Shown in pieces: positions 41,233-44,078 of a DNA stretch of 64,000 nt. The DNA is from a virus. Lineage: Duplodnaviria; Caudoviricetes. A program made the position numbers and the translations under genes. The notes under the pieces are model-generated. The model saw nothing but the letters and a program-made list of their open reading frames with translations, was not told the DNA's origin and made no database searches. Location of the stretch: IMG/VR virus record IMGVR_UViG_3300043464_002149, one strand, 5' to 3'. How positions within the stretch are numbered: the first letter of the stretch is position 1; each line of letters opens with the position of its first letter.

Positions 41233-41718
41233 TTAGTTATTTTTTCTATTGTTCATTATTTCAATTACAACATCTTCAAACGTATGTTGGAATTTTTCCA
41301 ATTTGCTAATTGTCTCAACAGTTTCAGCCTCAATTTTTAGCATATTAGCATTTAAATATAAACCTCTTTCGTTACCAGCAATAAGAACAAAACTTAAATC
41401 ATTTTCAATGGTACCATCAAGTCTAACTGAATCAACATAAACATTAAAACCTTCTTCAAAATTGGCTAGCTCACTTACTTGTGACTTAAAATTCTGTATT
41501 AATTGATTTAATGATCCTTTTTCTTCTTCAGACAACGAAAGGTCTTCTTGATCTGTACTATGGATTTTTACTTCCACATTATCGTTAAGAACAAGGTTAA
41601 ATAATTTTTCATCTTCTTCTTTTAGGATGCTCTTTGATTTTACATTTTCATTAAGATTTCTCATTGTATTGAGCATCTTTTTTATAGAATCATATCCTGG
41701 GTTCTGTTTGTGTAACAT
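41233..41718 (-). CDS. hypothetical protein
   Basis: First ATG at 41718; the track start at 41727 is TTG. Confidence 0.65.
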   Translation of the reverse strand: MLHKQNPGYDSIKKMLNTMRNLNENVKSKSILKEEDEKLFNLVLNDNVEVKIHSTDQEDLSLSEEEKGSLNQLIQNFKSQVSELANFEEGFNVYVDSVRLDGTIENDLSFVLIAGNERGLYLNANMLKIEAETVETISKLEKFQHTFEDVVIEIMNNRKNN

Positions 41719-42313
41719 TTTCTTCAAATATATTAAAATTAAACGATGGGTTTATATCTGTATAAATATCGGAGAAATTCGATTTACTGACTATTCCATT
41801 GAAGTTTTTAGCGTTCTCGAAGAATCCGGAAGATGGGACAGATTGATAAGGTATATCATAATGAGCACAAAGTAACAAACATAGGTCTGCTAATGCGTTT
41901 AATTGCTCTTTTGAATAGGTGTCCCAGTAGAAATACCCTCTCCAACCTCTTAGATGTGGTTCCCCTCTAAAAATGTCGTTAATCCAGTTACTGTAGGTTC
42001 CCATGATGGTGTTCTTGTTTAACCACCCTAGATTTTCAATAGCAATTTTGATTTGTTTTCTATCAACAGAGCTTTCACCAAAGGTTTTGGTCATGTAATC
42101 AGGCTCAATTAATTTGTAGATTTTACCAGTTTTGGTGATACAAAAATGAGGTATATCCTCATACTTTCCTTCCCTTCGGTATTTTAACATCTTAATAAAA
42201 TCGTCAATTCTCCTTTTGGTATCATAAAGAAGAATTTGGGTTTTATTATATTTTTTCTTTTTGTGATTTAAGTTTTTTAAATCAAAAGCTTCTGCGCCTA
42301 GAATTTCTAACAT
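41690..42313 (-). CDS. N-acetylmuramoyl-L-alanine amidase (Amidase_2)-like protein, Zn ligands apparently degenerate
   Basis: PHFCITKTGKIYKL, IAIENLGWL, YSKEQLNALADL...YDIP; LLYDT and SKSN sit where HxT and SH normally occur. Confidence 0.7.
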   Translation of the reverse strand: MLEILGAEAFDLKNLNHKKKKYNKTQILLYDTKRRIDDFIKMLKYRREGKYEDIPHFCITKTGKIYKLIEPDYMTKTFGESSVDRKQIKIAIENLGWLNKNTIMGTYSNWINDIFRGEPHLRGWRGYFYWDTYSKEQLNALADLCLLLCAHYDIPYQSVPSSGFFENAKNFNGIVSKSNFSDIYTDINPSFNFNIFEENVTQTEPRI

Positions 42314-42617
42314 TTCTTTGGAATGTTTTATTGCTTATTATTGGTTGCGATTCTTCTATATTTCCATCTTCCCAATATAAATCATCCGGCGTATCGCTTG
42401 GCGTAGCTGAAGGAGTAAACGTCTCTGTTGGCGTTTCTGTTGGGGTTTCTGTTACAGTTTCTGTCGGTGTAGGCGTTGGTGTAACAGTTTCTGTTGGTGT
42501 TGGTGTGGGGGTGCTAGTCTCTGTTGGACTAGGTGTTGGCGTCTCAGTCGGTGTTGAAGTTGGTATTAAATCGGGGGTAGACTGAGGTGTTTCTGTAATA
42601 AAAAGTGTCGTTATGAT
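42282..42617 (-). other. Met-less Pro/Thr-rich reading frame reachable by -1 slip from 42611..43783
   Basis: After TTA AAA AAA AAA the -1 frame reads IITTLFITETPQSTPDLIPTSTPTETPTPSPTE...DDLYWEDG...RNSRRRSF* (111 aa, TGA at 42282-42284). Confidence 0.7.
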
Positions 42618-43783
42618 TTTTTTTTTAAGTCATCATCCTCGTCTTCCTGGATATGATCTCGCCAAAAACTATCATTATTTATCTCTTGAAATTCCTCTTC
42701 TCTAGGTATTGAATTGTCAATATTATATTTCTGCACTTCTTCAACAGCTTCAAACGGTACTGGCACAGTTTCTTCCGGTTCAGTAACCTCCTGTCCTTCA
42801 TAAACCTCAATAGTGTCTTGGACAGTATTTTCCGTATTTAGATCTATAGCGTAAAAATTTTGTTGTTCTTCCTCTTCGGTTGGTTCTATTGTAGAAACAA
42901 TCTCATCGTCTGTATCAAGTTTTCTTTCATATTCATCTTGATTCATTTCCATGACTTCTTCATCTGATAATGCTGGAACAATAGTTTCAACTTCATCTTT
43001 TACTAATGGATTATCAAATGGTTCATTATATAAACCTAATTCTTCATCTAATCTCATCATTTCACTGAGGATCTCATCTATTTTTTCTTTAGATGGTGTT
43101 TCATTTACTTTAGGTTGTTCTTGAACATTTTCTTTATATTTTTTGGCAGCTGCTTTTAACGCATCGTTAGGCTCAGGTGGATTTTCAAAATATCTTTGTA
43201 GAATTTCTAAATCTCTTTCGGTTAATTTAAGCCTAGCAGATTCATCAGCAAGATCAGCATTAATTATATTGTCTTGTATTTGTTTATCAATACTAGGTTT
43301 AACATCTTCTTTTAATCTGTCTTCTTCTGTAAATTTAACTAACATATGTAAGAATGATAATGAAATCATCGGTAACATACCGCCAGCAAATAATGCTAAA
43401 AATCTTTTGTGACCAACAAGATTTGTTGGTTCTACACCCATGAACTCTAACAATGGTGCAACAAGGTCTACCCAATCTTTAAATGATTGTGAATTAATAT
43501 CAATAAATGAATAAGCAAAAAATATGTTTCCAATAAACTGAACCAAAGTAACAATAGCAAATGGGAAGTAAACCTTTCTACCCATGTCAGCAGATATTGC
43601 AGCTAATGCTGATAACGCAGCTATTTCAATACCAATAGATAGGTATAATGCCCAACTTACTGGGTTTGAAATACCGTACCATATTGTAACGTGTGATATT
43701 GAAACTATCGCCACGGTAATGATAGGTACTAAAAACGCTGTTATAATTAGCGTTTTATAATTTTTGTTTATCCAATTTTTCAT
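42611..43783 (-). CDS. multi-pass membrane protein with long acidic C-terminal tail
   Basis: About four hydrophobic helices in the first ~150 aa, then an acidic low-complexity tail; ends in an A10 run. Confidence 0.75.
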   Translation of the reverse strand: MKNWINKNYKTLIITAFLVPIITVAIVSISHVTIWYGISNPVSWALYLSIGIEIAALSALAAISADMGRKVYFPFAIVTLVQFIGNIFFAYSFIDINSQSFKDWVDLVAPLLEFMGVEPTNLVGHKRFLALFAGGMLPMISLSFLHMLVKFTEEDRLKEDVKPSIDKQIQDNIINADLADESARLKLTERDLEILQRYFENPPEPNDALKAAAKKYKENVQEQPKVNETPSKEKIDEILSEMMRLDEELGLYNEPFDNPLVKDEVETIVPALSDEEVMEMNQDEYERKLDTDDEIVSTIEPTEEEEQQNFYAIDLNTENTVQDTIEVYEGQEVTEPEETVPVPFEAVEEVQKYNIDNSIPREEEFQEINNDSFWRDHIQEDEDDDLKKKS

Positions 43784-43784
43784 A

Positions 43785-44078
43785 TTAATATTTACCCAAC
43801 TCTTTTGTCAATGTTGTTATTTCCTCATCAATTTTTGTTTGACGTTGAACATCTAACATTTTTCTGTCGGTCGCCTGGATCATTCTTTTTTCAGACTTAA
43901 GCCCTTCGATTTGTAAAACAATATTCAATTCTTTCTTTGTGTATGTCGAATCTTTAATTGTTTTAATCTCGTTTTTTATTTTAGTTATCTCTCTAGTATC
44001 ACTACATCCTTTAAAGAATGTTAATAAAGTGATGGCTAATACAATAACAGTAAAATTCGATTCAATAAACTTTTTCAT
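43785..44078 (-). CDS. signal-anchored or lipoprotein-like coiled-coil protein
   Basis: Hydrophobic N-terminus ending FFKGC, followed by a predicted coiled coil. Confidence 0.6.
   Translation of the reverse strand: MKKFIESNFTVIVLAITLLTFFKGCSDTREITKIKNEIKTIKDSTYTKKELNIVLQIEGLKSEKRMIQATDRKMLDVQRQTKIDEEITTLTKELGKY

Follow-up and report, generated by a model that had tools for sequence, protein, structure and literature searches.

For a handful of genes in bacteria, for insertion sequence (IS) elements and for RNA viruses, programmed transcriptional slippage has been documented well. Here we analyze a candidate case in the IMG/VR virus record IMGVR_UViG_3300043464_002149 (Duplodnaviria; Caudoviricetes), a stretch of 64,000 nucleotides, belonging to a very large phage of fresh water, whose full length we call the window, and in which a gene for a membrane protein of 390 amino acids ends on a run of 10 A's (A10). 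A predicted RNA hairpin directly precedes the run, and a hidden frame remains open beyond it in the -1 register. From the comparison with relatives we consider it probable that RNA polymerase (RNAP) slips at this run with the help of the hairpin, which would yield a short and a long form of the protein.

In C. rodentium, the inner-membrane gene tssM1 carries an A11 run before its stop, its mRNAs contain 10-15 A's and both length variants are required (PMC4256274). The window's gene resembles tssM1, and tssM of Yersinia pseudotuberculosis, in that many A's in a row (11 there and 10 in the window) stand directly before the stop of an inner-membrane gene and extra A's fuse a downstream C-terminal frame to it, giving two length variants with a common N-terminus, the slippage being experimental there and proposed here. 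It differs in that tssM1/tssM encode a component of the bacterial type VI secretion system, an unrelated protein, with no 5' hairpin described (PMC4256274), and in that few strains are concerned there whereas the layout found here extends across a large phage family.

The hairpin has its counterpart in the transposase of a Roseiflexus IS630 element, where a 5'-adjacent stem-loop stimulates RNAP slippage at a motif of ~10 nucleotides (Penno et al. 2015, as summarized in PMC5009743). Both systems place a nascent-RNA hairpin directly 5' of a ~10-nucleotide motif in a terminator-like geometry, but the Roseiflexus motif is the heteropolymeric T5C5 and undergoes a specific deletion of 1 nucleotide, whereas ours is a homopolymer that needs a change of +1 or -2 nucleotides. 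The hairpin described here is also AT-rich and weaker, and its stimulating effect is putative.

Thermus thermophilus dnaX yields tau and gamma by slippage on an A9 run (PMC5009743). Certain relatives of the window's gene (loci L027/L030 and L047) are like dnaX in that the long product arises by standard decoding, across an A10 run, and in L027/L030 the likeness extends to stops near the run in both other frames, where slipped transcripts would give the short product. The window has the inverse layout, with the long product needing the slip, and its protein is unrelated. In the type III secretion genes spa13/spa32 and mxiE of Shigella (PMC5009743), slippage adds a C-terminal extension of ~112 amino acids that overlaps the start of the next gene, as is proposed for the window, and for spa13/spa32 it may influence the expression of that downstream gene, a coupling that we propose here by analogy; these genes belong to a bacterial virulence-plasmid operon and encode unrelated proteins. 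Finally, a preliminary description of this DNA, made from the letters alone, had compared the site with the tail chaperone pair G/GT. The analogy with G/GT of phage lambda holds for the outcome, which in both cases would be two phage products with a common N-terminus, the minority product being lengthened at its C-terminus from the -1 frame, but it does not extend to family or mechanism, since lambda uses ribosomal slippage on a short slippery heptamer to make a soluble tail chaperone, whereas here we find a membrane protein with 4 predicted transmembrane (TM) helices in a non-structural neighborhood (sigma factor, amidase-like gene), a 10-nucleotide homopolymer and a 5' hairpin.

No description of programmed transcriptional slippage as a conserved feature of a double-stranded DNA phage gene family was found in the literature searched. 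Compared with known homopolymer slippage, the new elements are a covarying 5' hairpin, a phage gene family and the presence of both frame layouts in nature. The dozens of natural cassette variants, which differ in stems, loop sizes, runs (9-11) and layout, amount to a mutational series for the cooperation between hairpin and homopolymer in RNAP realignment. The site also matters for annotation, given that gene callers uniformly truncate the membrane protein and leave ~300 nucleotides apparently empty, and a membrane protein with two predicted isoforms and an antitoxin-like motif, encoded beside an amidase-fold protein, offers a possible entry to phage-host conflict in uncultured freshwater phages.

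The A10 run and the hidden frame of the window

The site comprises the following features; the minus strand carries every gene in this part of the window.

42617..42626, minus strand: A10 run, the proposed slippage site, containing A_AAA_AAA in phase
42627..42660, minus strand: RNA hairpin (GAG.AUCAUAUCC ... GGAU.GAUGACUU), with its 3' arm ending at the base before the first A
42611..43783, minus strand: zero-frame open reading frame (ORF) of the membrane protein, 390 amino acids, with 4 predicted TM helices, an acidic tail and the end DLKKKS followed by the stop
42611..42613, minus strand: zero-frame TAA stop, one codon past the A10 run
42630..42635, minus strand: TGA TGA closing the -1 frame, just upstream of the A10 run
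42282..42629, minus strand: -1 frame extension of 115 codons, with a linker rich in proline and threonine (PT-rich), DDLYWED, a basic end and a TGA stop
42366..42386, minus strand: DDLYWED motif within the -1 extension
42285..42317, minus strand: basic end RNVRNSRRRSF, the C-terminus of the -1 extension
42282..42284, minus strand: TGA stop of the extension

On the minus strand the zero-frame gene ends GAC TTA AAA AAA AAA TCA TAA. The -1 frame is open for 115 codons from stop to stop, 111 of them beyond the lysine run (K-run), and 51 of the 115 residues are proline or threonine. It occupies the 297-nucleotide gap between the annotated genes (42314..42610) and overlaps the ATG of the downstream amidase-like gene (42313) by 32 nucleotides. 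The account of this gene end, of the closed and reopened frame, of the gap and of the overlap in the preliminary description was accurate in every detail. An embedded lipoprotein of the o-spanin type was also considered for the PT-rich frame and was ruled out, as the frame lacks a start codon, a Cys and a lipobox.

A10 is the longest homopolymer of the window, whose GC content is 32.6%. In DNA of this composition ~1.7 T10 runs per window are expected by chance, and the arrangement goes beyond chance because the whole layout is conserved in relatives, a T10 alone not being improbable. Codon usage sets the run apart in a second manner. AAA accounts for 79% of the Lys codons in the 47 ORFs of the window, so that about half of the KKK tripeptides would be expected to be encoded by a pure A9, yet 13 of the 14 KKK tripeptides in the window's genes include AAG and the sole pure-AAA one is the A10 site. 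By this measure, long A runs are avoided in the coding sequence of the window and retained at this site alone, and the avoidance of pure A9 implies that errors arise readily on long A runs in this phage and its host.

Conservation of the site among relatives

We examined 160 related loci, 80 from IMG/VR (on contigs of up to 335 kb, corresponding to very large phages) and 80 from metagenomes. In 88 of them an A9-A11 run lies beside the stop and the motif [RK]N[VI]..N..RR is found in the -1 frame, whereas none of the 160 has this motif in the +1 frame. These loci provide 78 distinct contexts, in which the run is A10 in 61 cases, A11 in 11 and A9 in 6 (two of the latter being in-frame short forms), and it is never interrupted by G. 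The flanks of the run differ among relatives (gatgA10ttag, cttA10tcataa, gttA10gttcag). The 0-frame stop lies 0-12 nucleotides past the run in all relatives of the frame-shift type, and in many of them the -1 TGA includes the run's first A; because of this overlap and of the 0-frame stop close behind, the run is the sole place where the two frames can be joined. At the protein level, in 23 aligned homologs, the most distant at 61% identity, conservation of the C-terminal DLKKK-S equals that of the transmembrane core, and 114 of the 120 best homolog clusters terminate at the K-run, with fused forms of ~500 amino acids in 0 of the 120. Gene calling gave identical 0-frame proteins on as many as 14 independent contigs.

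The hidden frame itself carries the marks of coding selection. Between the extension of the window and its closest relatives (86-96% identical), substitutions fall mainly at the third codon positions of the extension, with 8 synonymous changes and 1 non-synonymous change relative to locus L081, and all length differences among close relatives are multiples of three. Across the family the extension ranges from PT-rich to acidic, retaining (D/E)LYWE..D, often followed by NPNQVIYDLENNKTIIP, and the basic end RNVxNxxRR; the LYWE motif is conserved though no other gene overlaps there. As judged from these substitution patterns, the hidden -1 frame is under purifying selection.

Taken as comparative evidence, these results indicate that the A10 site is a real, conserved and selected recoding site. 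The preliminary description had proposed programmed frameshifting or slippage leading to two isoforms and had asked whether homologs keep the run; the proposal is supported by the conserved run, stop and -1 ORF, which are kept in the 88 loci and 78 contexts given above, by purifying selection and by natural fusions of the two frames.

Beyond the K-run, three of the 120 clusters (P0057, P0064 and P0098) read into the +1 frame (DLKKNHNDTF...), as a run with one A fewer would, which may reflect either run-length polymorphism or assembly noise.

In-frame fusions and short forms

The same tail is found fused in frame 0, within a single ORF of 406-521 amino acids, in L027/L030, L028, L047 and L061, and an in-frame A10 is retained at the homologous junction in L027/L030, L028 and L047. 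In L027/L030 both alternative frames stop 2-7 nucleotides after the in-frame A10, and because of these nearby stops slippage would lead there to a short form, the long form being obtained by standard decoding. No abutting hairpin was found in the in-frame relatives checked (n=4). A tree built on the N-terminal 230 residues places in-frame forms inside groups of frame-shift forms at least 3 times; this tree left out most short forms, for which the tblastn match starts at residue 3, and was used solely for nesting, and its label of L103 as continuous is erroneous, one duplicate context having been lost.

Some 45 loci encode short forms of 225-270 amino acids, which lack the acidic region and the run and end in ..KKVLSYLRRDA before the stop. 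The sister group formed by short forms (L073-L080, L122-L160) lacks the extension too, and the downstream ATG lies in the last codons of the gene. Two short forms, L148 and L149, have an in-frame A9 located 26 nucleotides before the stop.

Extra in-frame A9/A10 runs occur in the middle of the gene, in the acidic part, in L027 (4237-4246), L047 (codons 265 and 451) and L061 (codons 255 and 348), with further cases in L038, L046, L063, L065, L068, L101 and L114. Mostly, these runs have stops nearby in both other frames, and slippage on them may lead to truncated forms.

The hairpin upstream of the run

Folded alone, the hairpin of the window reaches -7.8 kcal/mol (z-score -1.6). Among 60 distinct contexts, a hairpin with zero gap to the run was found in 55%, and one with zero gap and at most -4 kcal/mol in 52%. 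The corresponding control values were 2% for 1500 other positions within these genes, 2% for sequence ahead of other [GT]AAA sites and 1% for shuffled sequences. The stems differ among clades (CATCATC/GATGATG, CATCTTC/GAAGATG, CAACTAACTC/GAGTTAGTTG and CTTCGTCA/TGACGAAG). In two clade alignments the pairing is preserved in 89% and 97% of cells, falling to 16-67% when the partner is slid, and both-sided, compensatory changes affect 5 of 10 and 4 of 7 pairs, respectively. In the clade of the window 8 pairs show changes, all of them one-sided and pair-preserving. On the strength of these alignments and controls, the hairpin is enriched beside the run and covarying.

Probable slippage by RNA polymerase and its alternatives

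The reading that we find probable is a transcriptional slippage by RNAP at A10 assisted by the hairpin, and it is favored because a conserved hairpin abuts the run and no ribosomal stimulators were found. According to this reading, faithful transcripts would give the 390-residue form, which stops one codon after A10. While the run is being copied as an rA:dT hybrid, the hairpin would form in the nascent RNA within the RNA exit channel and destabilize the upstream end of the hybrid, and a fraction of transcripts would gain one A (or lose two). Ordinary translation of the slipped transcripts would then join the -1 frame and produce a form of ~500 amino acids carrying the PT-rich linker, the conserved LYWE motif and the basic RNVxNxxRR tail, terminating 32 nucleotides inside the amidase-like gene. 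A hairpin directly 5' of a tract of ~10 nucleotides is the geometry of intrinsic terminators, and also that of Roseiflexus IS630, the only stimulator of RNAP slippage to have been characterized (PMC5009743). A gene for a sigma-70-type factor lies two genes upstream of the membrane-protein gene and implies that the phage is transcribed by a multisubunit RNAP; slippage is documented in this class of enzyme, and 9-nucleotide A/T runs slip efficiently in vivo (PMC5009743). Matches to a promoter or a terminator between the membrane-protein and amidase-like genes were at background level only. We infer from the sequence that RNAP rather than the ribosome is the site of the shift, and likewise the direction and rate of slippage, the need for both isoforms and the set ratio between them that the preliminary description had suggested.

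Several observations weigh against this reading. The hairpin of the window is modest in energy and z-score, the changes in its clade are one-sided only, and about one third of the contexts lack a clear abutting hairpin. The Roseiflexus hairpin promotes a deletion of 1 nucleotide, whereas the A10 site needs +1 or -2. The mid-gene A9/A10 runs of some relatives indicate that such runs are not always avoided in the family. Every context has the heptamer A_AAA_AAA in phase, and sliding of ribosomes can occur on poly-A (PMC4363877), making a translational contribution conceivable. In addition, the isoforms and their ratio are predictions from sequence, and the basic tail of the extension overlaps the N-terminus of the amidase-like protein, to which part of the conservation may belong.

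The strongest rival, which we regard as unlikely, places the shift in the ribosome, with a uniform mRNA on which some ribosomes slip back one base, by programmed -1 frameshifting or by sliding on A_AAA_AAA. The heptamer is found in phase in all 78 contexts, iterated AAA codons cause ribosome sliding (PMC4363877), the avoidance of pure AAA elsewhere fits this explanation equally well, and the main junction peptide, ...DLKKKIITT..., would be identical under both mechanisms. The surroundings of the run argue for the polymerase instead. The 60 nucleotides downstream hold no stimulatory structure (mean z-score -0.36; about -1 kcal/mol in the window's clade), the 5' flank is the hairpin arm and offers no Shine-Dalgarno-like stimulator, and no Shine-Dalgarno usage is seen in 42 genes. 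Seven A's would suffice for a ribosomal shift, yet the run is always of 9-11 and without AAG, and a 5' hairpin would be unfolded within a ribosome positioned on the run. Hairpins located 5' of the site are reported to attenuate -1 ribosomal shifting. RNAP slippage and ribosomal shifting could also both contribute.

Phase variation at the DNA level, in which replication slippage would create heritable A10 and A11 subpopulations of the phage that make either the short or the long protein, is a very improbable explanation. Homopolymer tracts are classic contingency loci, and the three A9-like variants among the 120 clusters would suit it, but run lengths that fuse the frames occur in 0 of the 88 frame-shift-type loci and in 0 of the 120 clusters, the run is kept tightly at 10±1, with frame contexts that compensate, and the hairpin is left unexplained.

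A homopolymer error in sequencing or assembly, with a true A11 and one continuous ORF of ~500 amino acids, had been named as the main alternative in the preliminary description, and the data make it very improbable. No close relative with a fused A11 was found, and the same split recurs in the 88 loci, which stem from numerous independent assemblies and pipelines, and a -1 shift is needed whether the context is A9, A10 or A11. Long homopolymers are error-prone and the +1 reading of 3 of the 120 clusters reveals some noise in run length; still, identical 0-frame proteins on up to 14 contigs, the lack of fused forms among the best homologs and the correct reading of the in-frame A10 of L027 and L047 in the same kind of assemblies speak against such an error, which would also leave the abutting hairpin and the persistence of a pure A run unexplained.

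The same slight probability attaches to an unfused extension, translated from a non-canonical start of its own or open as a by-product of PT-like repeats, which are stop-free in this frame by composition: GTG or TTG is present in the first half of the extension in 42 of 69 relatives, but the window has no ATG, GTG or TTG there, independent initiation is not conserved because ATG occurs in 8 of the 69 only, many extensions are not PT-rich and yet retain LYWE and RNV...RR, the same sequence is fused in frame in L027, L028, L047 and L061, and the -1 frame opens exactly at the run.

The membrane protein, the downstream gene and the host

Two further features concern the membrane protein and the gene downstream of it.

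43130..43279, minus strand: C-terminal (toxin-binding) motif like that of TacA/DUF1778, LTERD...NPPEPN.ALK.AA, residues 169-218 of the membrane protein (PF08681)
41690..42313, minus strand: Amidase_2-like gene, 207 amino acids (PF01510, E 2.1e-8, the match beginning only at profile position 37)

The membrane protein has more than 4000 homologs, all of them viral or metagenomic. At the nucleotide level the region had no match among 50,697 phage records, a protein search gave a single match of 31%, located in an unannotated 462-kb uncultured phage, and neither the membrane protein nor the extension-bearing fusions nor the neighbors had a match in PHROGs and NCBIfam. Hydropathy places four hydrophobic helices within residues 1-150, with the predicted TM segments between 11 and 149, and the distribution of K and R suggests, by the positive-inside rule, a topology with both termini inside (N-in/C-in). 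Apart from the TM and TacA-like parts, the protein is acidic and disordered (72 D and E in 240 residues). An AlphaFold2 model of the 390-residue protein is helical and of low confidence (pLDDT 47.5), too poor for a fold search.

Residues 169-218 score 22-27 bits against PF08681 (DUF1778; cut-off 21), covering only positions 38-80 of the 80 of the profile. In the PDB the same segment matches 7zg5_C (E 2.9e-4, with LTERD...NPP.PNE.L.AA aligned) and also KacA (5zgn), and the Atlas clusters are 81-96% TacA1. The N-terminal ribbon-helix-helix half of DUF1778/TacA is absent, the N-terminus being the 4-TM domain, and no GNAT toxin gene is adjacent, as the neighbors are the sigma factor and the amidase-like gene. 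A TacA-like motif behind a 4-TM domain may represent a membrane-tethered antitoxin mimic directed against host GNAT toxins, and our best guess from these motifs is that the tail would modulate the activity or the partners of such a mimic.

The ATG of the amidase-like gene lies within the N-V codons of the RNV motif of the extension, the first 10-11 codons of the gene coincide with the extension's basic end, and the overlap is 32 or 35 nucleotides in 49 of 58 distinct relatives. Translation of slipped mRNA would end 32 nucleotides inside this gene, and a coupling of expression is possible, by analogy with spa13/spa32 (PMC5009743). The amidase-like protein shows ILLYDT at the expected place of the zinc-binding His motif.

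No Shine-Dalgarno sequence is visible in the 28 nucleotides upstream of 42 start codons, and these regions are A/T-rich. Upstream regions of this kind, A/T-rich and lacking a Shine-Dalgarno sequence, are typical of Bacteroidota and their phages. Together with the PT linkers, the missing Shine-Dalgarno sequences suggest a host of the Bacteroidota type.

A broader proposal, which we advance as tentative and as rather doubtful in its entirety, is that the hairpin and A10 constitute a dedicated RNAP slippage cassette, shaped like a terminator on an rA:dT hybrid and maintained in a large family of freshwater phages of very large size, probably with Bacteroidota as hosts. There it would set the isoform ratio of a membrane-anchored, TacA-like antitoxin mimic and, by bringing ribosomes past the start of the next gene, tune an amidase-like gene without a zinc site, the lineages having flipped repeatedly between a layout in which the long form depends on the slip and one in which the short form does.

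Directly upstream of the membrane-protein gene, the ORF at 43785-44078 (minus strand, 97 amino acids) has an N-terminal hydrophobic segment that ends in the lipobox-like FFKGC, followed by a coiled-coil-like remainder. It is possible, from these features, that this ORF encodes a small lipoprotein or spanin-like protein beside the membrane-protein and amidase-like genes.

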